Below are positions 3,267 to 61,669 of a stretch of DNA of 64,000 nucleotides, piece after piece. Source of the DNA: Octopus vulgaris (taxonomy: Eukaryota). The DNA lies in NCBI GenBank assembly GCA_951406725.2, contig OX597820.1, forward strand, positions 118,420,001 to 118,484,000. Direction: 5' to 3'. How positions within the stretch are numbered: the stretch's first letter is position 1; each line of letters begins with the position of its first letter. Below the pieces are notes generated by a model. It searched no databases and was not told the origin of the DNA. It worked only from the letters and a program-made list of their open reading frames with translations. The position numbers and the translations under genes are program-made.

Positions 3267-3321
<55 letters not shown>

Positions 3322-3517
3322 TAAAACGGTAAGATAAAAGAAAGAAAGAGACTTCAATATTATGTAAATAGAGGAATTTATCTGTTAATGTAATATGTGA
3401 CAATTATTCGGTAGCCCAAAAAACCCCACAGTTTTATCTTGGCCACCGATTAATTGTCACATATTACATTTACAGATAATATATATATATATATCTATAT
3501 CTATCTATCTATCTATC

Positions 3518-3612
<95 letters not shown>

Positions 3613-3655
3613 AAAAAATGAAGTTCGAAAATGCTGCTGTATTATACAATTTTTA

Positions 3656-3727
3656 ATTTTTATATATACATTATAACATGTTTCAGTTCCTGAAATGAAC
3701 CTTATCAAAAAAAGTTATATATAAAAA
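3656..3727 (-). ncRNA. Type I hammerhead ribozyme-like motif (U3-A8 variant) in the PLE 3' region
   Basis: Minus strand reads TTGATAA-GGTTC-ATTTCAG-GAACT-GAAACATGTTA. Stem II is GGTTC/GAACT, stem III is the palindrome AACATGTT, and the distal stem I is TTTTTATATATA/TATATATAAAAA. Confidence 0.65.
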
Positions 3728-4069
3728 GAGACAGCTCATGCCGTCAAACACAAGAAATTCATTTATAATACACAACGGAGTCAGACATCTTAGAGTTCAT
3801 GTATAGTTGATATATAGTTTGAAGTGTATATGTTCAAAGTGTTCGATGCAGTGGCCCACGGTGGCGATACGTATTCAATACAAAAAACAGATCAAAGTGG
3901 TGGAAAGCGGTCAATACAGAAGATTGATGTTTCCGAAAGAGCGAGGAATTCATTTTTACCTTAAGCAATTGTGATGACCCATGGTGGAAGTTCGCTGGGT
4001 GGTTCTAGTGGGTTTTTGTGAAATGCTCGGTTTTATAATGCCTGTTAGGTGGTCAATCTAGCGTAGCGT

Positions 4070-4401
4070 GACGTCATCAATGTTTTGACCAATCGTTTCG
4101 TTAGGTGGCTTTAATCAAGTGGAACGGGACGTCATCATTATTTTGACCAATCGCTGCATTATAACTCCCTCTTGTTTGTTTCCTGTCTTGACCAGTCGCT
4201 TCGTTAGTCAAGCATAGCAGGACGTCATCCAGATTCTGCCCAATCACGACTTATAGCTACATTAGATCTGCCCCCTGTCTGTACTTGTTAGGTGACTATT
4301 CAAGCAGAAAAGGACGTCATCAATATTCTGACTAATGACTGTCCCCTGTTTGTATCCTGTCCATTCTAGCAGAGCTAGACGTCATCAACTTGTTGACCAA
4401 T
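4070..4401. promoter_or_regulatory. Array of five GACGTCA-N12-CCAAT modules in the PLE pLTR (candidate promoter/enhancer)
   Basis: GACGTCA at 4070, 4128, 4221, 4313 and 4378, each followed exactly 12 nt later by CCAAT (CTAAT in the fourth). Confidence 0.55.
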
Positions 4402-4569
4402 CAGAATCGGGTCTGACCCTTAGCTGTATCGTATGTATCAGGGTCAGATTTGCACGAAAGAATTTTTTTCCTTTTTTACTAAGGCATATTTCCGTCAGAG
4501 TGAGTGTCTGTTTGAAGTAGCGGCCGTGGTGAAATTTGGTTCTCCTTTTCGGAGGACTTATCTTTTGTT

Positions 4570-6867
4570 TTAGTATTCCTGGCCCAGGGTGTTTAAACTT
4601 GGTCTAAATTTTTTTATGAAATATAGTTCTTTATTTTGGCGTTGTGTGAAGGTTGCGTTGTCACTGAATTTATAGAGCGGGTTAGTTGTAAATTTCGGAT
4701 TTACATTTCCAGCACATCTATCTATGTGTCCGCTGACCGGTATTTTGCGGTAATCAGGGTTTCTAATTTGTGATTTATGCACCGCCATCCTGTTACGTAA
4801 GCTATTTTTTGTATGGCCTATATACTGCCTATTGCAGCCTGCGCATGTTATGACGTAAATTAAGTTTTCTGATGCGCAGGTGAAGTTTGTTCTAATGGTG
4901 AACTGGTGGCCTTGTTCCAGTATAAATTCTGATCCTTCTTTCAAGATGACACAGATTCCGCAGTTGGGCCTTCCACATTTTCTAACTGCTGGTTTTGTGG
5001 TTGATGTTGAGTGCAGTGTGGCTTGGGTTAAAATCCTTTTCAAGGATTTTGGTTGCCGTTTACTTTTAATGATGGTGTGTGTTTCGAGGATCCGGTTCAT
5101 CTTTGGGTCTCCCTTTAGTAGGGCTGTGCTTTGTAGTATGGTATTGAAGGCCTCATTGTTGAGTGGGTTGTGTGTAGAGATGTAGGGAAGGGTTTTTAAT
5201 TGTTCTTTCTTTTTTGGTTTTGTTTGTCTCAGGTCTTCTATACTTAATTTAAGTACCCGTTGGATTGCACTGTCTATTAGGGGCTGTGGATAGTTTCTAT
5301 TTGTGAGTGTGGTTCTAAGTTCCTGGAGACGTGTGTGTCGGGTGTTTGTGTCTGATATTATGGTGCAAATCCTTCTAGCTAAACAAAAAGGGACATTCAT
5401 TCTAGTGTGTCGTGGGTGGCATGAATCAAAGGGTAGGTACTGTTTAGAGTCTGTCGGTTTATAGTAGATATCTGTCTCTATTTTGTTGCCGGTTTTCTTA
5501 ATGAGGATGTCTAAAAATGGTAATTCTTTTTCGTTGTGGTCCATCGTGAATTGTATATTGTCATTTATTCCATTTAATAGAATTTTAAATTCCTCAAGTT
5601 TCTCTATGCCTTTGTCCCAGATGATGAAACAGTCATCGAGGTATCTTTTCCAGTTGTTATGGATATAGGTGGCGAAGGTGTTTCCATATTTCTCGAGTGT
5701 CATCCGGTATAGTATTTTCTCGAGGTATCCCATCACTAGGTTGGCAAAAGATGGTGCAGTACGCGTGCCCATCGCTGTTCCCGATCTTTGCCTGTAGAAA
5801 TCATTGTCAAAAATAAAATAATTGTTCTCTAAAATGAATCTAAGTCCTTCTATTATAAGGTCTTTGTTTATGCGAGTTGGGAGTTCAAAGGGGTAGTTAT
5901 TCAGCCAGAAGGTGATTGCTTCTATTCCTAGGTTGTGAGGGATGTTAGAATAAAGATTAACTACGTCGAATGATACTAGAAGGGTTTTCTCATTGACTGT
6001 TTTAGGGAGGTGGTTGAGCATATCTATATCGTCTCTTACGTAGCTTTTGATGTGTTTTAGGAAAGGTTTAAGAAGTGTGTCTAAGAAATTGCTGAGGCGG
6101 TGAGTTTCACATGCTGGCCCTGCTATTATCGGTCTTAGTTTAAGATCATTTGGTGAAGGGATTTTGATGAGTGTGTCGGTGGATGTTTTGCACGTTTCTC
6201 TAATGGTTTGGCTTTTGTGTACCTTAGGGATACCATAGAACAAACTCGATTTGCATTTGAAGTTAGTGATGTATTCATACTCCTTGTTCGTGAGTCCTTC
6301 TTGGTATGTGTTGATTAATGTCCTAAGGTTATGCATTATTTTTTGCTGGTTATACTGTTGGGCCCTTTCATAATACGTTTCATCTCTTAATAGGGATAGC
6401 ACTAAATTTTTATAATTGTTTGTATTCATTATTACTATCGCGTTGCCCTTATCTGCCTCCTTAATTGTTATTGTTTTGTCTTCTCTTAGTTTGATGAGGT
6501 CGTTCCATTCTCTTTTGTTGAAGTTAGGGCTGTGTTTTTGTTTCTTGATGAATTGAAACGGGAAATTAGTTATGTAGTCACAATAGCGGCCTAAGGCTTT
6601 ATTCTTACCTTTGGTGGGGGTGTAATTGCTCTTGTTTCTAGCTATTGAGTCCTCCTCTATTTGTTTGTCTTGAAATGCCTCGGTGAGTCTTAGTTTTCTG
6701 CAAAATTCCGAAATATCATCTTTCATTTCATAATAATTAGAACGTTGTGGGGTGGGTGTAAATTTAAGTCCTTTGGAGAGTATGCTTATTTCGTTAGGTG
6801 TAAGTTCTTTGTTTGAGAGATTGATTATCTTAATTACCTGAGGTTTCTTTTGTTTGTCCTTTGCCAT
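4570..6867 (-). CDS. PLE polyprotein: reverse transcriptase + Cys-rich linker + GIY-YIG endonuclease (765 aa from first Met; probably translated from a frameshift at 6897-6903)
   Basis: PLE RT motifs ADKGNAIVIM, LRPII, LVSFDVVNLYSNIP, QRSGTAMGTRTAPSFANL, RYLDDCF, LPFLD and YYKPT. Linker CGRPNCGIC. Endonuclease NLIYVITCAGCNRQYIG...R..H...H...E. No stops or frameshifts. Confidence 0.95.
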   Translation of the reverse strand: MAKDKQKKPQVIKIINLSNKELTPNEISILSKGLKFTPTPQRSNYYEMKDDISEFCRKLRLTEAFQDKQIEEDSIARNKSNYTPTKGKNKALGRYCDYITNFPFQFIKKQKHSPNFNKREWNDLIKLREDKTITIKEADKGNAIVIMNTNNYKNLVLSLLRDETYYERAQQYNQQKIMHNLRTLINTYQEGLTNKEYEYITNFKCKSSLFYGIPKVHKSQTIRETCKTSTDTLIKIPSPNDLKLRPIIAGPACETHRLSNFLDTLLKPFLKHIKSYVRDDIDMLNHLPKTVNEKTLLVSFDVVNLYSNIPHNLGIEAITFWLNNYPFELPTRINKDLIIEGLRFILENNYFIFDNDFYRQRSGTAMGTRTAPSFANLVMGYLEKILYRMTLEKYGNTFATYIHNNWKRYLDDCFIIWDKGIEKLEEFKILLNGINDNIQFTMDHNEKELPFLDILIKKTGNKIETDIYYKPTDSKQYLPFDSCHPRHTRMNVPFCLARRICTIISDTNTRHTRLQELRTTLTNRNYPQPLIDSAIQRVLKLSIEDLRQTKPKKKEQLKTLPYISTHNPLNNEAFNTILQSTALLKGDPKMNRILETHTIIKSKRQPKSLKRILTQATLHSTSTTKPAVRKCGRPNCGICVILKEGSEFILEQGHQFTIRTNFTCASENLIYVITCAGCNRQYIGHTKNSLRNRMAVHKSQIRNPDYRKIPVSGHIDRCAGNVNPKFTTNPLYKFSDNATFTQRQNKELYFIKKFRPSLNTLGQEY

Positions 6868-7818
6868 CGTGTGTCCCTGTTCCTGTGTGTGGGGTCTAAA
6901 AAATGGTTGGTGTAGTTATGTTCAAAGCTATTATTTATCTGTCTCATGTTGTTATAATTGTCAGAGTGAGTTTGTGGTGCTCTGTTCTGGAGTCTGTTGT
7001 TGAACCTAGTGTTACGTCTTAGTTCCTCAGGTGTATTGTGTTGGTAGTTGTTTCCTCCGTAGTGCATTTGTTGTTTGTTATGGTTGTATGGTTGGTTCCT
7101 GGGGTGGATGTTTGGTAGTAGCGTTTTGGTTTGGTTATGTGGGTTGTATTTTATAGTATTGTATGTTGTGGCCCTTAGGTTCGTGGAATGGTGTGGTGGG
7201 ACCCTATAAGTGTTTTGGGGTTGGTGTAGGTAGTGTGGGGTGCGTTTTAAATGCATTTTTCTGGTGTAGAGTGTGTTTGGATTTCTTGGTGGTTGTTCTG
7301 CTCTGTTGGTATGTCTATTTTCGAACTGGTGTGGTGGGCCTCTGTAGGTGTTTTGGGGTTGGTGTAGGTAGTGTGGGGTGTGTTTTAGGTGTACTTTTCT
7401 GGTGTAGAGTGTGGTCGGATTTCTTGGTGGTTGTTCCGTTCTATTGGTATTTGGTTTTGATTTGCTTAATTTTATGAAGGGGTTGTTGGATATGTGTTCA
7501 TTTTTGAAGTTGGTTTCATAATCTAGAAACCAGATGGCGCTCTTTTCCCATCGTTGGAGGGACTTAAGTTCCTCTTTTTCACATTCTTCATTCCATAGTG
7601 CTGTTAATGTTTCAGTATTGTTGTTGTCTATTAGTTTGATGACTTCTTCGTTGATTTCCTCGTCTATGGTTTTTACTTTTTCTTCATTCGTTTTAGCTCT
7701 CAGCTTAAGTAGTTCTATTTCCATCTTCATTTTTTCTAATGACATTTTTTCTCTAAGTTTTCTTTGTTCTTCTGGTTTTTCCGAGATGGGTTTGATTTGT
7801 AATTTACGGGGTATGTTT
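6834..7818 (-). CDS. PLE ORF1 (5'-truncated): coiled-coil domain followed by an N/Q/H/P/Y-rich disordered tail
   Basis: Open about 1 kb and overlapping ORF2. Charged heptad-like stretch EEQRKLREKMSLEKMKMEIELLKLRAKTNEEKVKTIDEEI. The predicted start MCMC lies in flanking microsatellite, so the true start is missing. Confidence 0.75.
7190..7450 (-). repeat. In-frame 138-bp (46-aa) tandem duplication within ORF1
   Basis: NRTEQPPRNPTTLYTRKVHLKHTPHYLHQPQNTYRGPPH versus NRAEQPPRNPNTLYTRKMHLKRTPHYLHQPQNTYRVPPH. Confidence 0.9.
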
Positions 7819-8445
7819 ATACACATACACATACATATATATGATTAAAGGGTATCCATTAAGTACCTAAGAACATCAAAGTGAAGCACACCACAATTAA
7901 TGCATTGAGACAATGACGCAAGTAATGGTAGTGAATTAATCCATTACCATAGCAACTTCTTTTAATATCCAAAGATACATGGAGCCATAAGTTTGGCGTA
8001 AAAGCATAATAGAAATAGACAAATGGCTTCTCAGTCACTGCTATAATTGTGACGTAAACATGGTACAGTCAACTATGTAGAATGCAAAACATACGTTAGA
8101 TTACGTAACACATTATGCAACTCCCAACTCATCAGGCTTAGCAAATGAACCAGCGATCAGCGGCACGCTGATGAATCAACCGTTCGTGGACAAATGAAAT
8201 TCCGAATCAGTTTTAGCAACGTTTAAGAATTGTAAAATGGGTGGAACTGTAATCACTAATCAGTCAATCAAGAGAGTGGAAGGAAGAATAATTAAAAGAC
8301 ATGTCTCACCTGAAGATGCCACTAAACGATTCTAATAACGAATATTATTATCACGCTACTGTAGAGAACGAAGCAAATCAATGAAATTCATGCAGATTCC
8401 ATTGATGGGTCAGATTACAATAATTGAAAATTATAGGGAGTGTGT

Positions 8446-10783: not shown

Positions 10784-12051
<1,268 letters not shown>

Positions 12052-12229
12052 TTAGTAGTTAAATGGTACCAATATTTACTGGAAAATAGCAATCGATACA
12101 ATAGCGTCGTATTTATATCGATTGCTATTTTCCAGTAAATATTGGTGCCTTGTTCTACCATTTATCTACTTTTATATGTATAATTTTACCCTTATGGGGC
12201 TTTACTGGAAAGTAATGCATTTGTATTGA

Positions 12230-17896: not shown

Positions 17897-18480
17897 ATGA
17901 ACAAGGTAGCACCAACAATTATAAAATACATAAGACACTCTATGAATAAGTGGCAGGCAGTGCTACAGCTCCAAACAAAAGAGGGACTCGTGAAAACCAA
18001 AGCCATCCCCATTGGAAGAGGAATATTCCAGGGAAACACGCTCTCTCTACTCCTGTTCTGTTTGGCAGTGACACCTTTATCTGACATGCTAGAAAGAACC
18101 GGATGCGGATAAAAATGTAACGGCAAAACAATTAGCCACCTCTTATATATGGATGACCTAAAACTATACGCTACAAATGATAAACAGCTGGAAATACTAC
18201 TTCAGACAGTACATGTATTTACCAAAGAAATAGATATGAAATTTGGCTTAGAAAAATGTGCCAAAGCAACCTTGAAAATAGGAAAACTAGTTAAGAGTAG
18301 CAACATCACACTAGACAAAGCCAATGAAATAAGAGAATTAGACCAAAGCCAGACATACAAATATTTAGGAATCCATGAACTAGGTACGATACAACACACA
18401 CAAATGAAAGAGAAAATAAAGAAAGAATACTATAGTCGAGTGAGATCAATACTAAAAACAGCGATCAATGCTAAGAACCG
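17897..18480 (+). mobile_element. R4/Dong-clade non-LTR RT fragment next to an (AAT)n array
   Basis: IPIGRGIFQGNTLSLLLFC, ISHLLYMDDLKLYA, MKFGLEKCA and TYKYLG, with one in-frame stop. Confidence 0.85.
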
Positions 18481-18489
18481 AGATAATAG

Positions 18490-18560
18490 GAACGTTGAGA
18501 CGGGCGAAATACCGCTAAGAATTTTGCCTGGCGTGCTAACGACTCTGCCAGATCACCGCC

Positions 18561-18561
<1 letters not shown>
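18490..18561 (-). mobile_element. SINE family A head fragment
   Basis: Minus strand reads GGCGGTGATCTGGCAGAGTCGTTAGCACGCCAGGCAAAAT. Confidence 0.7.
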
Positions 18562-20300
<1,739 letters not shown>

Positions 20301-20632
20301 AGAAAAAGAGAGGAACTGAATAAACAAGTTGGGTTATTATCGAGTGTTATCATTCTTCAAGAAGGATTTATCCAAGATTCGGCGCAGGATCTCAGGCCAA
20401 ATCGCTTGTTAAACAAGTGCTGATGAACGTAATTGCTACTGATATATGTTTTAAAGTGTGCGAACATATAAATGCTGTTATTTAGACATAAAAGAGCGTA
20501 AAGAGAAATAATGGTTATCTTTCTCTTATTTAGTTCGGTTACATAATTCTCTACAAAAGATCTGTGTCTGCTCACTCAGTCAAACATGCACACATGTGAG
20601 AAAGAGGGGCGATTCATGTATGCGTGTATGTA

Positions 20633-23399: not shown

Positions 23400-23451
<52 letters not shown>

Positions 23452-23571
23452 CATATAAAAGAGGTGAACTTAAACAGGACACCTTATATACTAGAAAGGG
23501 TAATTAAAGCCCAAACCAAGAATAAGAGTATTTTCAAAGGGAAAGAAAAATAAAAAATATTTCTATAGTTA

Positions 23572-23641
23572 CCCCTACACTCGAGTTTCTGCATTAATGT
23601 GCAAACAAATTAATTTGCCGCCCGTGCTTCTTCAGTAAGGG
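23572..23641 (-). ncRNA. Type I hammerhead ribozyme (near-canonical; GUG triplet, probably inactivated)
   Basis: CCCTTA-CTGAAGA-AGCA...TGCA-GAAAC-TCGA-GTG-TAGGGG. Stem I has 6 bp and stem III is the palindrome ACTCGAGT. Confidence 0.75.
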
Positions 23642-25116
23642 CGCTAAGATTAATGCACGTAGGATCTCAGGCCGATAGAATAAGTACTAGGCTTACAAAG
23701 AATACATCCAGGGGGTTGATTTGTTTGACTAAAGGTGGTGCTCCAGCATGGCAGCAGTCAAATGACTGAAACAAGTAAAAGAATAGGCGCATGCGTAGTT
23801 TGTTTGTCCTCATCTTCATTGCAGGAAGATAAAGAGTTTCAAACAGAAGCAACGTTGAGTTGCTGATGAAGTGGAGTGCAGGCGGATTGACCAGCTGAAG
23901 GAGGCTACAGTTGATTTTGTTTTACGGTGGTGACACTATTCGCAATCACATTATGGAAAGATAAACACCGGGACTTACAAATATATATAACATACAGAAA
24001 GATAAAGTTTAAGAAGAGGAAATCAGCATTGAAGACAAACCACGCATTGAGAAGAAACCTTTTTGGGTCATTTGTACTAAAGGTCAATGAGAGAAAGAAG
24101 TGGTACCCGCTGACAGGCGAAACGCAACCCTCGAGTTTGTTTCACAAATGGACAGTGGTCACGATGCGTCGCAGGAGATAGTGATTATTGTCTTCGGAAA
24201 GAGACAGCAAAATGGGTACATCTAGATATGGCATGATCTTAAAGACGGACGTGTTGAAATCTGATCAGATGCGTTGGCGACATTTGAAGTCGACGAGGAC
24301 AAGTCGATGAGGACAAGTCGATGAGGACAGCTTTTCTTTCAGATCTAGTGACAGGGGTTGAAACCTGAGCATGGTATTATGATTCTGAAACAACGTCTCA
24401 ATTCATAGAACAGCGACAAATATTTTTTTCCCGAGGCCTAGGAATTTCTGAAGGCAATTATGAAGACAGAAAATCATGGAATCTCTCTTTTTCTGGGTGA
24501 CAGGTGTGTCATGCTCCCTGGGATTCTGGAAGTGACTGTCCACTGAACTGCGAACAGTACAATGAGATACTCTATGGCTTAGCGAAGCCATTAGGAGGAA
24601 GTGGCGGAAAAATGAACTCCCGTGTGTCATGGACAATTATTCAATCGCTGAATTTAAAGCTTGCTTTAAAACTTTCGATTTACATATATTCTTGTAATCT
24701 CGTGATTGGTGCGAGAGAGTCGTGAAAAATATGTATGAAAAGTGGAATTGCGCATCGCGTTGCGGCTGACGTAATTTAAATAATCTTGTAAAACTTGCGG
24801 TGTATAATATTTAATTTACAAGAAGACCGAGAGAGTCTCTTTAGCATAATCAGATGAGCATCGGGTTATTTGGAATGCGTGACTAAACCTATGTATATTA
24901 AAACATCTGGTCGCAAATCTTTTTACAATCTTAATGTGAAATACCGTATTCTTGTACACACAGAAACACACACTCACACATACACATTCACACTAACACA
25001 CAAACATACACACACGCACACGCACACACATTCTCACGCACATTCATACACATGCATAATCATGTACATACATGCGTATATCTATATACGCGTCTATATG
25101 TGTGTGTATGTGCGTG

Positions 25117-32685: not shown

Positions 32686-33357
32686 GGAAGCTTTATGAAA
32701 ATAAACAAAAGACGAAGGCAGGTGGAGTAAAAATTAAATATAAAAAATACTAAATGGGACAAGAACGCAAAAAAACACAGAGACGACACAAAGAACGGAC
32801 GGGTCATTCGAAGCCTCTAATCTTCAGTCAGGAACCGGATCGTCCTAGCAAATTTCGGCTGATTAATCCTGATATTGCTCAGATCCGGCCAGCCCCAAGG
32901 AAAAACTAAGCTGCGAACATTAGATTTCTTGGAAAAAGGATCGAATGTATACGAAACAAGGACAGAAACACAGGCGATGCCACACGAATATAAATACAAA
33001 AAATAAAAATAAAATTAAAAATAAGAATGGTAATAACGGGACAAAAACAGCGGGTGTCTTACGACTTTAGACAATTGCACTTATCTTAGCGGGCGTATTA
33101 TCAAATAAATGCCTTTCCGGCAGACGAAGAGAGAAGCCGTGTTGTCACAGCAGCGGTCACTAGCGGAAAGGCTAGTTAACCAGCAGGTCACGTGAGAGTA
33201 GAGAAGAAGAGATTGAAAAAAACAAGGGGACAAAGGAATCAAAGAGAGAGAGGGAGGGGGAAGAAACAGAGCGCGCCAAAAGATTTCTCTGTATATCTAC
33301 CTTCTCTATAATGTTGCCACTTGATTTGAAAATGTTTGTATTAATGGAAAAGCTCTA

Positions 33358-33450
33358 TAATTGGCTGATGAGTACTCAGCATCTTAAATCTGTTGTAATA
33401 CTTACAACATTTAATAAAATGATGTAGTACGAAACGATCGTACCAAATTA
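33358..33450 (+). ncRNA. Canonical type I hammerhead ribozyme in a short insert ending in (TA)n
   Basis: TAATTGG-CTGATGA-GTACT...AGTAC-GAAAC-GATC-GTA-CCAAATTA. Predicted cleavage after 33442. Confidence 0.9.
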
Positions 33451-33471
33451 CCGGAGTCATTCTTGTTGCTT

Positions 33472-33538
<67 letters not shown>

Positions 33539-37464: not shown

Positions 37465-37468
<4 letters not shown>

Positions 37469-38118
37469 CAATAAAGGGTTTGGCAACTAGTTGCCTTACC
37501 ACATACCGAATTTAGAAATAGCAGTCAAAGAGTTATAGCTATTTCTTCTACTAAAGGAGATCTCAGTAAAAACAGCAATTGGAAGGCAGACACAAACAGG
37601 TAAGAGAGGATGAATTAACGGCAATCTATCATACAATTTTAAGTTATCTACGGACGTACGTTTCGAAATCAAGTCTTTAGGAAAGCATAAGAATTAAATG
37701 TTAAATAATTCTATCTTACCGAAAACTTCTTTTCTCTTCAGCGTAGAATACTATAATCATAAATGATTATATATTGAATTTTGAGATACTAGAAGGCATC
37801 AACTCAACTCAGTATCAGAGCGAGCTAGAATCCGCAACTAGTATCACCAAATTCAATGTTTGAATGAAAAGATTGTGTCACTAGCCCCTTCCCACCCGCG
37901 TGTAGCCAAAACATGATGCTGTGGTCATCTACTGAGATAAAATATGGTTATCCGTAATAATGAAGGGTGAAATTAATTAATTTGGAATAATTATCAATTA
38001 CACCAAGTAGTCTTCGGCATGTAAAAGCCTCATTTGAGGAAAATTTAAGTAATACTAAGCAATAAAGGGTTTGGCAACTAGTTGCCTTACCACATACCGA
38101 ATTTAGAAATAGCAGTCA
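37465..38118 (-). mobile_element. Non-autonomous HHR-bearing element (retrozyme/PLE-pLTR-like): 591-bp unit plus 63-bp perfect terminal repeat, inside (TA)n
   Basis: 37465-37527 is identical to 38056-38118. Non-coding, with an internal canonical HHR. Confidence 0.8.
37645..37750 (-). ncRNA. Canonical type I hammerhead ribozyme with an elongated stem II
   Basis: TCTACG-CTGAAGA-GAAA...TTTC-GAAAC-GTAC-GTC-CGTAGA. Palindromic stem III ACGTACGT and a GUC cleavage triplet. Confidence 0.9.
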
Positions 38119-38717: not shown

Positions 38718-38756
<39 letters not shown>

Positions 38757-38982
38757 TTTATAAGTAAGGGCAAAAGAAAACAATTCTAATGCCAAAATAT
38801 GCCGAAAATGGAGACTACGTCAATAACCATGTAATTGATGTAGTGTCCATTTTCGGCATATTTTGGCATTAGAATTTTTTTCTTTTGCCCTTACTTATAT
38901 ATTGCTTATAAATTTATCCTTTAAAGGTATTTTTTAATATGTTGCCCATTGATAGAATTTTTTTCGAAAAATTCTATCCTAC

Positions 38983-43109: not shown

Positions 43110-43299
43110 TATATTGGCGATTTTTTTCCCTCTGTCTTCCCTTCTCTGGATCTTTCCTTCTCCTATGTTTCCGACAAGGAGCTCCGCTCGAAACGTTAAA
43201 TCCTCCTTCTTTCCTTCTTTCCTGAGCGTCCAATAATACTATATTTGTTCCACGTCCTCGCGTTGTTGTGTTTTTTTGTGCTTTCTTGTTTGGATTAAC

Positions 43300-44779: not shown

Positions 44780-45440
44780 ACGTATGTAAGATGACGATCT
44801 GCAAGGAAGGAAGATCCTATAACAGTTCCATTTCATGTTGTTAAACCATATACAAATATATCTTATGATTACAGAACAGAAGCAATATTTATTTACCTTA
44901 ATAAATCCCCTGATGATTTACGTTACCGCATATAAGACATAACTTATAATTGCAGGTCTCCAATTTATTCTACAAAACAATTTTGATGTAGCATTAAACA
45001 ATCAAATATTTGGAACTGCTGCAGGGACCTAGTTAGCCCCAACATATACAAATTTAGTGAAGGAATACATTGATTTGAGAATGCATAAAGATTGAGTGAA
45101 AGATGAAAAGCATTGTAAAAATTACCTTAAAGAAACTGGACAAGAAATGTAGACAGCATTTATCCTATGGGGAGAAATTCTTAATAGAATTTTCCGAATT
45201 TAAGTGTCATATAAATAGCATTAGCAACATCATACAGTTTTCTAAGGAATACAGCAGAGACAAATTACCCTTTTTAAATATTGTGATCATATAAAAATAA
45301 ACAAGGATTGAGGCAGATGTATATTATAAACCACGAAACTCGAGGCAATATCTACATTTAACTTCATGCCATCTGAAATACATGAGAATCGATATTTCTT
45401 TCAATCTTGCTAAAAGTATATATACCATCGTATCAAAACT
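44780..45440 (+). mobile_element. Degenerate PLE RT remnant related to the element at 4570-6867
   Basis: GLQFILQNN, GTAAGT*LAPTYTNLV, IIQFSKEYSRDKLPFLNI, DVYYKP...YLHLTSCH and FNLAKSIYTIVS. Confidence 0.75.
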
Positions 45441-47500: not shown

Positions 47501-47638
47501 TTATATATATACTAGTATATATGTGCATGTATGTGTGTATGCATGTGTATATATATATATATATGAATACACATACATATACACTTATCTCCTCTTCCAT
47601 ACATATATACAGTCACACACACACATACGCGTGAACAC

Positions 47639-47679
<41 letters not shown>

Positions 47680-48052
47680 CACACACACAGTCTCTGTCTA
47701 TATAATGCACGCATCCAAATGATTTAAATCCATTTAGAATTCTATGCAACTTTGTCCTGCCAATTTTTTTCTTCTCGCTCTTTCTCTCTCCCCGTCCTAG
47801 TACGCATATACGTACATATATACATGCAAACATACACACATGCACTCTCTCCCTTACACACATATGTACACACAAAACAAACACGCATATATACTCCAAC
47901 CAATTCATATGTACACCATTCTTTTCTAAAATTTAATAATCTATCAAGGAACAATGCGAGGAGAAAGTTGCTCCCCTCCTCCTCCTCCGCCTTCTCCTCT
48001 TGTTACTGCTCATGCAAATTATAACAATAAAAAGAATGGTAACAAAAACAAA

Positions 48053-50582: not shown

Positions 50583-51178
50583 CTGATGCAGTACCAAGGC
50601 CCTGATGCAGTACCATAAAGGCCCTGATGCAGTACCAGGCAGTGGCTCTCATGGCTTCTGATCTTAACTGATTGGAAGTGTTATCATGTGACATTGTTTT
50701 GTCTTGGTATAAAAGATGGGCTACAGCAAATATTCTGCTCAATACCACAGATTTGCTTGTCAGTTGTTTGGCCTTAACCAGTTGAGCATGTCCCTTAGTG
50801 GCTGACGATATGTGCATCTCTGATCACGAGCAGAAGTAGTGGGGGAGCATCATAGCCGTGTGTTGAGAGGGATTCTTTGGGGTTTGAATGATTCACCTCT
50901 GGAAACATGGGTGGTTCTTTCAACATCCTTAAACAACCCTTATTCAGGGACCGTTTGAGCGGGATGGGCTACTCGACCTGAAGAAAATTCTAACTGGGCC
51001 CCACCTGCAAGGTCATGTGCTGTTTATCTTGATATGAGATCACCATGTCGCGCACATATGGTTGTGATGCATGTGCCTGGTGTACCTTTATCCGACGGGT
51101 AGTCATGATGGGTATATTGGGCTTCGTATATTTTACCCCAGTGTCACTTTGATGGCATAAACTGCTCTCTCACTCAAT
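50583..51178 (+). mobile_element. (TAA)n-inserted non-coding retroelement 3' portion (probable R4/Dong 3' UTR), copy 1
   Basis: Bounded by (TAA)n and ending CTCTCTCACTC(AAT)n. Near-identical to the copies at 51521 and 62295. Confidence 0.8.
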
Positions 51179-51239
51179 AATAATAATAAGAAGAAGAAAA
51201 CAAACTATGCTGGATCATAAATATAACATGCCGAGCTGA

Positions 51240-51390
51240 CAACAAGGTATGCGATAAGGAAGAAAGGAAAGTCGATAGATATCACAGGTTAGCTTGGGAA
51301 GTTAAGCAGTTGCAGTCGATGAAAAAGGTAGCAGTAGTTAGTACCAATAATTGTCGGAGCCCTGGGAACAGTGAGCAAAAACCTCGAGAA
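51240..51390 (+). mobile_element. R4/Dong-like RLE domain fragment
   Basis: DRYHRLAWEVKQLQSMKKVAV..VVPIIVGALGTVSKNLEK. Confidence 0.7.
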
Positions 51391-51433
51391 GTAGTACATC
51401 TCCAGCGTTAGAAGCTGTGCAAAGGCAATGAGG

Positions 51434-51488
<55 letters not shown>

Positions 51489-51520
51489 TAATAATAATAA
51501 TAATAATAAAAATAATAATA

Positions 51521-52035
51521 GATCTTAACTGATTGGAAGTGTTATCTTGTACGTTGTTTTGTCTTGGTATAAAAGATGGGCTGCAGCAAATATTCTGCTC
51601 AATACCACAGATTTGCTTGTCAGTTGTTTGACCTTAACCAGTTGAGCATGCCCCTTAGTGGCTGACGATATGTGCATCTCTGATCACGAGCAGAAGTAGT
51701 GGGGGAGCATCATAGCCATGTGTTGAGAGGGATTCTTTGGGGTTTGAATAATTAACCTCTGGAAACATGGGTGGTTCTTTCAACATCCTTAAACAACCCT
51801 TATTCAGGGCCCTTTTGAGCGGGATGGGCTACTCGACCTGAAGAAAATTCTAACTGGGCCCCACCTGCAAGGTCATGTGCTGTTTATCTTGATATGAGAT
51901 CACCATGTCACGCACATATGGTTGTGATGCATGTGCCTGGTGTACCTTTATCAGACGGGTAGTCATGATGGGTATATTGGGCTTCGTATATTTTACCCCA
52001 GTGTCACTTTGATGGCATAAACTGCTCTCTCACTC

Positions 52036-60555: not shown

Positions 60556-61669
60556 TTGGGTTGTCCGGAAAGTTCGTGCCATTTTTAAAGGAAAGAAAAA
60601 GGTCAATAAATATTTGCCATTACATTTCTAATCAACCAAATATGAATCATTTTGTTGCACAATGCGTCTCGATCTTTCCTTTAACTTGAAAATACCCTCT
60701 TTTCAGAATTGAGGTGGTTTAATGGCAAAGAATTCATCAAGGTATCTTTTTACGTCATCCAAGGAATTGAAATTTTTACCATTAAGACTATTCTGCAGAG
60801 ACCTGAATAAGTGGAAATCCGAAGTCACAAAATCTGGTGAATATAGCGGGCGGGGTAACACAATGCAGCTGAGCTGCAGCAATTTTTGCCTAGTTCCCAA
60901 AGAAACGTGCGGTCTTGCATTATCATGTTGGAAAACAACACCCTTCCTGTTGACTAATTCTGGACGTTTCTCTTGAATTGTTGCTTTTAACTCATCCAGT
61001 TGTGTGTAGTATTTCTCAGAATTAATTGTCTGGTTACTTGGGAGAAGCTCATAGTACAGAATTCCTTCCAATTTCACCAGACACACAGCAAAACATCTTT
61101 AGGGCGAAGACCCGCTTTTGGGTGGCTAAGGGTGGCTCATGTCGCTTACTCCGGATCGCTTTCTCTGAACATTTCGGTAGATAATCCATTTTTCATCACC
61201 TGTCACAATTTGCTTTAAAAAAGGCGTGTTTTCATTCCGTTTATAAAGCGAATCTCAGATGGAAATGCGACCCAAAAGGTTCTTCTCACTCAACTTATGT
61301 GGTACCCAAACATCGAGCGATTTGTGTACCCACGCTTTACCAGGTACTCATGCTTTACCAGGCACAGTTTTTTCGGATAAAGAAACATCACCGTAAACTG
61401 CGCATATTTATTTGGTTGCTTGTGAGGCATTTTTCACTTTACGGAAAAAGAAAAGCGTCAAGTGCCGAAAATAAACTTTCTTATCTTTCATTTTAAAGGG
61501 TTACAGAATTAACACAGGTTATAGGAACATATACCTTCTTCCACGAAAAGAAAGCTTAAACTGTGCTCTAAATGGAGGTGTAGTCAAATCCTATATTATG
61601 GACTCGACCATATTCTAAAATAAGTCGAAAGGTAAGCTACTATAAATCGGCACGAACTTTCTGGACAAC

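Follow-up and report, generated by a model that had tools for sequence, protein, structure and literature searches.

A candidate -1 frameshift site between ORF1 and the reverse transcriptase-endonuclease of a putative Neptune-type Penelope-like element in Octopus vulgaris

We analysed a stretch of 64,000 nucleotides from Octopus vulgaris (assembly GCA_951406725.2, contig OX597820.1, positions 118,420,001 to 118,484,000; called the window below). On its minus strand, at 3609..7815, lies a copy of a retrotransposon whose sequence features place it among the Neptune-type (cysteine-linker) Penelope-like elements (PLEs). Full copies of this family likely make their reverse transcriptase-endonuclease (RT-EN) as a fusion with an upstream open reading frame (ORF), ORF1, by programmed -1 frameshifting at the slippery heptamer U_UUU_UUA, a reading that we hold with good confidence from sequence comparison. 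A large group of animal retrotransposons that is mostly drawn with a single ORF appears to combine a gag/pol-like ORF1 with a frameshifted RT-EN, and annotations that begin at the first ATG, as well as proteins cloned from them, would miss the N-terminal domain.

The two reading frames and the slippery heptamer

In full copies, ORF1 encodes 466 aa and starts about 66 nt into the unit; in the window family there is a 79-nt overlap, in the -1 frame, with ORF2, which encodes RT-EN. The window copy keeps the 3' two-thirds of ORF1 (6834..7815, minus strand); the protein of full copies has a predicted helical N-terminal domain and a low-complexity tail. The heptamer U_UUU_UUA stands in the ORF1 frame at 6897..6903 (minus strand), four codons past the last stop of the ORF2 frame, and the ORF1 stop (6834-6836) follows 20 codons later. 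A mutation of the window copy was rejected as the origin of the frame change, because most of the 30 copies examined share the same two-frame layout and 8 of the 30 loci have an undamaged ORF1.

The genome contains at least three families whose ORFs are open. Family B, which has more than 50 rows among the genome matches, shows 66% amino acid identity to family A (the window family) over the N-terminal 256 aa of ORF2. It carries U_UUU_UUA in all 11 copies that retain the site, and no AUG precedes residue 67, which lies past the conserved KFTPTP motif. Family C, the third, also keeps U_UUU_UUA. From 97 foreign loci, we screened those that include the ORF2 start and 250 nt upstream; 16 were Neptune-like and 12 of these have the two-frame layout. 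Families A, B and C and these 12 foreign loci make up a set of 15 elements, all of which have an in-phase heptamer in the overlap (15/15; expected 0.017 per 20-codon overlap). The heptamer is U_UUU_UUA in 11 elements, U_UUU_UUG in three and U_UUA_AAC in one. Every site has the form of a -1 frameshift site, with X_XXY_YYZ in the 0 frame and the overlap open in -1, and in all 15 the ORF2 frame runs through the heptamer without a stop and closes 0–15 codons upstream of it.

These elements also group by descent. In an RT tree (FastTree, midpoint root) of 57 out of 96 sequences (all two-ORF rows, long-N rows and 14 others), the 15 two-frame elements and the linker elements share a single clade (support 1.00), and 26 single-long-ORF rows without the linker, some of them near-duplicates, fall apart from this clade; the tree contains no named reference elements and splits linker from no-linker elements only.

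Several observations weigh against frameshifting and have to be set beside the rival explanations. Four of the 16 Neptune-like foreign loci (L100, L140, L147, L155) lack a clean layout or are broken. An AUG precedes the first conserved ORF2 motif, N[LI][ST], in 5 of 14 elements, and families A and C have an in-frame ORF2 AUG 8–9 codons past the heptamer. Such starts would suit a separate RT-EN, translated from an AUG or near-cognate codon near the ORF1 stop through leaky scanning or termination-reinitiation, with the U-rich heptamer serving as a tether. Family B has AUA at the place where A and C have AUG, many database homologues are annotated with a start about 10 residues ahead of the motif, and a fixed stop distance would suit a tether. 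We nevertheless consider a separate start improbable: no AUG precedes the motif in 9 of 14 elements, none of the six elements with a 10-codon spacing (see below) has an ORF2-frame AUG overlapping the stop, the ORF2 frame always runs open across the heptamer before closing upstream, and the heptamer is always in the phase for tandem slippage, the U_UUA_AAC variant included. Joining of ORF1 and ORF2 by splicing is less probable still. Introns are possible in PLEs, and UUUUUUAG, which resembles a splice acceptor, is found at 9 of the 15 sites. However, AG is missing at that place in the other six sites, and contigs of four probable RNA runs read through from upstream into the site with no splice-type joint across the ORF1/ORF2 junction; that these contigs are RNA is only a guess, and they break 3 nt past the AG.

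The ORF2 frame of the window copy comprises 781 codons from stop to stop (4570-6915), or 765 aa from the ATG at 6867 (4570..6867, minus strand). The sequence-only reading had described it as a complete RT with YLDD, a cysteine linker and a GIY-YIG domain, and all three were confirmed by Pfam and motif checks; it had overlooked ORF1, the frameshift signal and the variant hammerhead of the element itself. RVT_1 (E 1.2e-6) and GIY-YIG (E 3e-6) were matched; the RT motifs DKG, GTAMG and YLDD (5632-5643) are present; the linker CGRPNCGIC (CX4CX2C) begins at aa 631 (4951-4977), between RT and EN; and the GIY-YIG domain at about 4588-4863 shows LIY..C-x2-C..YIG and two His (CCHH). These motifs are kept in an alignment of 25 homologues (42–58% identity) chosen from 570 matches. 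No sequence match to ORF2 was found in PDB, and no relatives of the element among the viral contigs searched. Some database homologues bear symbiont names, and PLE ORFs also occur in contigs binned as bacterial genomes (L161-L177), most likely through host contamination. The window ORF2 differs from six other copies at only 5–9 of 2295 nt and is therefore recent, as the same reading had supposed.

On these features we class the element as Neptune-type. RT is followed by a C-terminal GIY-YIG with CCHH, with a CX2-5CXXC linker between the two, as in Neptune/Nematis-type EN+ PLEs. The pseudo-long terminal repeat (pLTR), the partial tandem and inverted copies and the 30–40-nt tail of that type are found as well, and the pLTR bears a predicted hammerhead of the U3-A8 variant (see below). 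Canonical Penelope/Poseidon elements have a single ORF with an in-frame N-terminal domain and no Cys linker, in contrast to the two frames and Cys linker here, and Naiad/Chlamys elements have an N-terminal GIY-YIG, in contrast to the C-terminal EN of the window family.

ORF1 is conserved at 44–59% and has relatives in 898 clusters (E<=1e-3). Structure prediction gives an all-helical protein (pLDDT 74), with no fold match in PDB at E<=0.001 and no match to a Pfam family; its match to Poseidon-type N-termini is weak (9.7% probability). A sister branch of the linker clade (L116:917-2845, L160:326-2857, L123:506-2830, L109:1-975) has a different, longer ORF1 and retains the -1 overlap and the heptamer. 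The motifs IGDSN..G(I)ND..DGxH, in which this ORF1 ends, resemble an SGNH/GDSL esterase, and a Pfam search with it gave no match. GDSL ORFs have been reported in Athena elements (PMC5408684).

The ORF1 stop and the stimulator of frameshifting

Among the 15 elements, the ORF1 stop lies 10 codons past the heptamer in six, 11–20 codons in eight and directly adjoins it in one. The spacing was also read from proteins, in a test set of 152 ORF1 homologue ids unused before, 78 of which have at least 340 aa. Phe-Leu, the mark of the heptamer, occurs within the last 42 residues in 66 of these 78 (expected 0.06 per protein), and the number of residues past it is 0–9 in none, exactly 10 in 23 and 11–40 in 43. 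At least 10 residues follow the mark in 17 of the 18 shorter homologues that carry Phe-Leu. The ten C-terminal residues of ORF1 range from acidic to basic with no common motif.

No conserved downstream hairpin was found by a fold method that is blind to pseudoknots and long-range pairs: the 70 nt past the heptamer are no stabler than shuffles in 14 of 15 elements (z above -1.4), the other being L162 with a stable fold (z -2.2). Five elements, including families A and B, have 0–1 U in the 30 nt past the heptamer, and A and B fold there at about -1 kcal/mol. Ten intervening codons place the ORF1 stop 33 nt from the start of UUA, and collided ribosomes (disomes) are described with a spacing of 30 or 33 nt and as piling up at stop codons (PMC7784341). 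The lack of a conserved hairpin, together with a ten-codon spacing that fits the spacing of collided ribosomes, suggested a terminating ribosome as the obstacle.

We therefore put forward, tentatively, that cysteine-linker PLEs across many animals use a structure-free -1 frameshift, with the roadblock formed by the ribosome that terminates at the ORF1 stop. If this stop lies 11 codons from UUA, the P and A sites of a ribosome queued behind would be occupied by UUU and UUA, and it could slip while trying to translocate. The 20-codon spacing of the window family could mark a second place in the queue, or result from a conserved pair of Val-Ile codons. The rest of the proposed cycle has better support than the roadblock: a tandem RNA would be transcribed from the pLTR; most ribosomes would make ORF1, and a minority would slip and make ORF1-RT-EN, in a gag/pol-like ratio. 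The endonuclease would nick (TA)n, and RT would start at either of two AT-rich sites that lie about 40 nt from each other. To our knowledge, the known stimulators of -1 frameshifting are RNA structures or bound proteins. If true, the roadblock would represent a stimulator of a new class, by which RT output is coupled to ribosome load and to the speed of termination, and it would account for a hard ten-codon floor across dozens of divergent ORF1 proteins. The floor and the spike at ten codons allow a direct reporter test of a terminating ribosome as a -1 stimulator.

A number of points count against the roadblock. The spacing of the window family is 20 codons rather than 10, the ORF1 stop of L123 directly follows the heptamer, and the spacing exceeds 10 in 43 of 66 homologues; the Phe-Leu mark is absent in 12 of 78, and a short homologue, P0209 (274 aa), has it 6 residues from the C-terminus. 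Since spacings above 10 are common, the exact ten-codon distance is not essential, and the roadblock model alone leaves unexplained why shorter spacings are forbidden and longer ones tolerated. Among the homologues, the heptamer is deduced from the dipeptide and not from DNA; the homologues are related, so that the P values (1e-27, 6e-9) overstate independence; and the 10–12 window for the 15 DNA cases was picked after the data had been seen. Our literature search found no description of a Neptune slippery site or a stop-spacing rule, collision-stimulated frameshifting not being a target of that search.

At not far from even chances, the frameshift is real, an RNA pseudoknot, long-range pairing or protein binding stimulates it, and the ten-codon floor reflects a stop that protects this stimulator or a minimal ORF1 tail. 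According to the legend of Fig. 1 in PMC8557442 (Craig et al. 2021), ORF1 of some PLE type may be split off through a frameshift that involves a pseudoknot; the clade is not named in the text, and the frameshift of Neptune elements may already be known. This also bears against the roadblock. The passages of PMC8557442 that were consulted give no stop-spacing rule. In coronavirus, the position of the stop tunes frameshifting via refolding of the pseudoknot (PMC8168617), and the stable fold of L162 and the frequent spacings above 10 would fit a stimulator of this kind. On the other side stand the 14 of 15 elements without conserved local structure, the five U-poor downstream regions with the feeble folds of A and B, and the C-terminal residues that share neither charge nor motif. 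We regard a pseudoknot or protein stimulator and the terminating-ribosome roadblock as about as likely as each other.

The layout can be compared with known systems. HIV-1 gag-pol uses a -1 frameshift at U_UUU_UUA with a hairpin or pseudoknot as stimulator. Athena/Terminon EN- PLEs have a coiled-coil ORF1 upstream of RT that is joined to it by frameshift; they lack an endonuclease and attach to telomeres. The window family is like the latter in its helical ORF1 and probable frameshift, and unlike them in having an EN and in not being telomeric. With HIV-1 gag-pol and SARS-CoV-2 (PMC8168617) it shares the in-phase slippery heptamer and the short overlap. Where the 0-frame stop lies matters in SARS-CoV-2 too, but there a pseudoknot is used (PMC8168617), whereas the window family has no conserved hairpin and a ten-codon stop floor.

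Among PLEs, the closest description is that of Neptune/Nematis EN+ elements in PMC8557442, which share with the window family the C-terminal GIY-YIG CCHH, CX2-5CXXC linker, DKG motif and pLTRs, the partial tandems, inversions and 30–40-nt tail, the (TA)n bias and a hammerhead near the 3' end. The same source calls canonical EN+ PLEs single-ORF, whereas in the window family ORF1 and RT-EN overlap in -1 and the heptamer is conserved. A killifish Neptune, repeat.CL27 (PMC12602865), also has an unannotated upstream ORF1 and an RT/GIY-YIG ORF2, but these are described as non-overlapping and ATG-defined, and the word frameshift is absent from that paper. Poseidon PAc of Anolis (Frangieh et al. 2024, PMC11167929) resembles the window family in its tandem loci, AT-rich cleavage, pLTR hammerhead and long N-terminal helix, and differs in having a single ORF and no Cys linker.

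Copy structure and insertion at (TA)n tracts

The sequence-only reading had proposed that the element targets (TA)n, and genome-wide tabulation of flanks bears this out. The 3' 392 bp of the element were searched against the 2.8-Gb genome, giving 1053 first-look candidates, and 40 were scored at 96–100%. One real copy of 4713 bp was taken as the unit for reading junctions; the junction loci are the best-scoring copies, and the counts describe young insertions. On the 3' side 41 junctions were read, three of which are internal breaks, and all 38 true 3' ends have a TA run of at least 11 nt within 40 nt, vs a background of 4.6% of window positions. On the 5' side 53 were read, four being the same locus fetched twice, and a TA run of at least 8 nt is found at 35 of the 49 distinct junctions (background 6.9%). 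Targeting of (TA)n by the window PLE family is strongly supported, and a (TA)n bias has already been described for Neptune/Naiad PLEs (PMC8557442).

Family copies show partial tandems, inversions and an optional tail of about 40 nt. Five loci (L002, L007, L039, L074, L076) have another 3' end some 40 nt beyond the first, again with an ATATA-like junction, and that both 3' ends match the target repeat suggests microhomology priming. Two RT start sites give the tail in Poseidon PAc (PMC11167929); its RT start is described as non-homologous to the target, whereas both 3' ends of the window family lie at ATATA-like junctions.

The window copy itself abuts, at 3609, a (TA)n tract (3479..3608), which is its target site and forms the same junction as in the 38 true 3' ends. 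At the other end it is truncated at 7815, beside a degenerate TA/CA tract (7815..7850), with the initial 485 bp of the unit of about 4.7 kb missing. Both flanks are as the earlier reading gave them; its description of an apparently intact element holds for the open ORF2, but not for the copy, which has lost the start of ORF1. The 781-codon frame is kept in 28 of 149 scored matches. The window copy is thus neither whole nor the sole copy with an intact ORF. The boundary at 7815 was also considered as a splice site and rejected, being merely the truncation point of this copy.

The 3' untranslated region (UTR), or pLTR (3609..4569, minus strand), stands before the next ORF1 in tandem copies. It contains a predicted minimal type I hammerhead (3657..3727, minus strand) with the U3-A8 variant core UUGAUAA, a 5-bp stem II, a palindromic stem III (ACAUGU), a GUU site and an imperfect stem I. 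This motif is nearly invariant, as most of 54 fetched copies differ only in the length of U or TA runs. As a ribozyme it looks weak: it has a GUU site and a mismatched stem I, and its fold z is only -1.54. An Rfam scan of the pLTR and the 5' end of a full copy found no hammerhead; the variant core is not modelled in Rfam. Minimal PLE hammerheads (PMC4209133) are similarly of type I, with a palindromic helix III and a U3-A8 core variant. The hammerhead of family B in L061 is also of the U3-A8 type, with UUGAAAA, palindromic ACCGGU and a GUA site; in L064 (4900-5750), the 3' UTR of family B has (CAT)n/(CTT)n runs.

The pLTR also has, at 4067..4412 (plus strand), five GACGTCA repeats, four of them followed by CCAAT about 13 nt later, the number of motifs varying among copies. 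They may be ATF/CRE sites and CCAAT boxes, and it is possible that the array is a promoter for the next tandem unit. The same repeats were tried as hammerhead cores and rejected, as they have no stem I.

Hammerhead repeats and other contents of the window

The earlier reading had counted about a dozen inserts with hammerhead or hammerhead-like motifs in the window. A strict CUGANGA scan with short loops found no hammerhead in the whole window, its loop limits missed real motifs, and the descriptor was replaced. A PLE-type descriptor gave four motifs (3708, 23635, 33365, 37741) vs a mean of 0.17 in 100 shuffles, and seven vs 1.18 when one core mismatch was allowed; one of the four is the hammerhead of the element itself. 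Two more are plausible by eye, a variant core at about 43190 and a truncated relative at about 42335, so that the count is about six and not a dozen, and several of the GAAAC half motifs belong to other repeats without a CUGANGA core. A scan in any strand order, which would miss core-opened layouts, found only two ordinary-order motifs (0–2 in 12 shuffles) and no permuted hammerhead. Among the 150 of 318 matches listed from an Rfam scan of the whole window are microsatellite-driven microRNA matches.

Five copies of a repeat that ends in a hairpin and GAAAC..GUA, with no CUGANGA core, lie at 23768, 29947, 31424, 43900 and 57745. This is probably the 3' end of a short interspersed element and the likely source of the 'HHR-like' count. 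At 50802-51900 a duplicated repeat contains CTGACGA/CTGAAGA words with no hammerhead fold.

Four hammerhead-bearing repeats were delimited. The one at 33284..33477 (plus strand) is non-coding, with a unit of about 350 bp, ends at (TA)n and is unrelated in sequence to the PLE. The second, at 37467..38117 (minus strand), is a retrozyme-like tandem repeat of 1.1 units of 593 bp between two (TA)n tracts; the same motif occurs in 42 fetched units with no PLE protein match within the unit, as expected of a putative non-LTR retrozyme, in which each non-coding tandem unit bears a type I hammerhead. At 23450..23660 (minus strand) lies an older repeat with a unit of about 470 bp, 82–91% identical to other copies and with G at the cleavage position in the window copy. 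The fourth, at 43113..43299 (plus strand), has a variant minimal hammerhead, with a CCGACGA-type core in other copies. TA lies directly at the repeat end in 15 of 20 loci for the unit of about 350 bp, 9 of 20 for the 593-bp unit and 17 of 20 for the 43190 family; the score of the family of about 470 bp is 1 of 20, its query end not being the true repeat end. In general, copies of these high-copy, non-coding repeats either stop at (TA)n or continue into a further unit of their own kind, and inversions occur. The clustering of hammerheads near (TA)n that had been claimed holds in so far as the four strict motifs lie 100–275 nt from (TA)n, but 28.5% of the non-tract positions of the window are within 200 nt, and the window alone gives P about 0.07.

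Mobilisation of non-coding tandem retrozymes by PLEs is a published model (PMC4209133; bioRxiv 10.64898/2026.07.22.740005), and the units in the window are further families, with no homology to the pLTR of the window PLE. The window repeats were likely moved in trans by PLE enzymes of the same genome. The bolder claim, that the window copy or its family is the driver of these inserts and enlarges (TA)n tracts through a feedback loop, seems unlikely to us. In its favour, the hammerhead repeats have the same footprint as the PLE, and the family is young and abundant, as the first-look candidates show. Against it, the window copy has no ORF1 start, at least three open-ORF families coexist, one insert family is much older, and no DNA similarity was found between the window PLE family and the hammerhead inserts, so that nothing ties these to the window family in particular. 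The feedback loop finds no support, for TA on both sides of insertions is what is expected of insertion into existing tracts. A PLE ORF stands beside hammerhead inserts in 4 of 80 loci; it was rejected as their own coding part, the copies being neighbouring or nested. Most of the (TA)n-hammerhead system that had been proposed is known biology, and its driver claim is unproven. With several young intact-ORF families and several young retrozymes in one genome, the trans-mobilisation model can be tested.

At the locus L269 (G000:C4:89508000-89517900), five units of the 593-bp repeat form an array that faces a fourth Neptune-type family head to head, and only a short TA run separates the two. In L258, the 3' UTR of family C has more than 1 kb of degenerate (TG)n/(TA)n after the ORF2 stop, which matches the window at 47614-47712; if this microsatellite-like tail is part of the element, family C carries such DNA along, the nearest thing to the proposed feedback loop.

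Apart from the PLE, the window has no other long non-repeat ORF, and its remaining coding elements are decayed, as the sequence-only reading had noticed, with RT and mariner fragments only. They include an old Neptune-type RT fragment at 45263-45435 (65% to the window family), an RT fragment that runs into a 1.7-kb (TAA)n array at 18113-20323 and a mariner fragment at 60703-61098. A 160-bp insert between two TA tracts (3319-3478) has a long inverted repeat, and its start recurs beside L074, indicating a repeated TA-associated element. More fold-back inserts at TA tracts, resembling inverted PLE-type ends, lie at 12046-12150 and 38749-38900.

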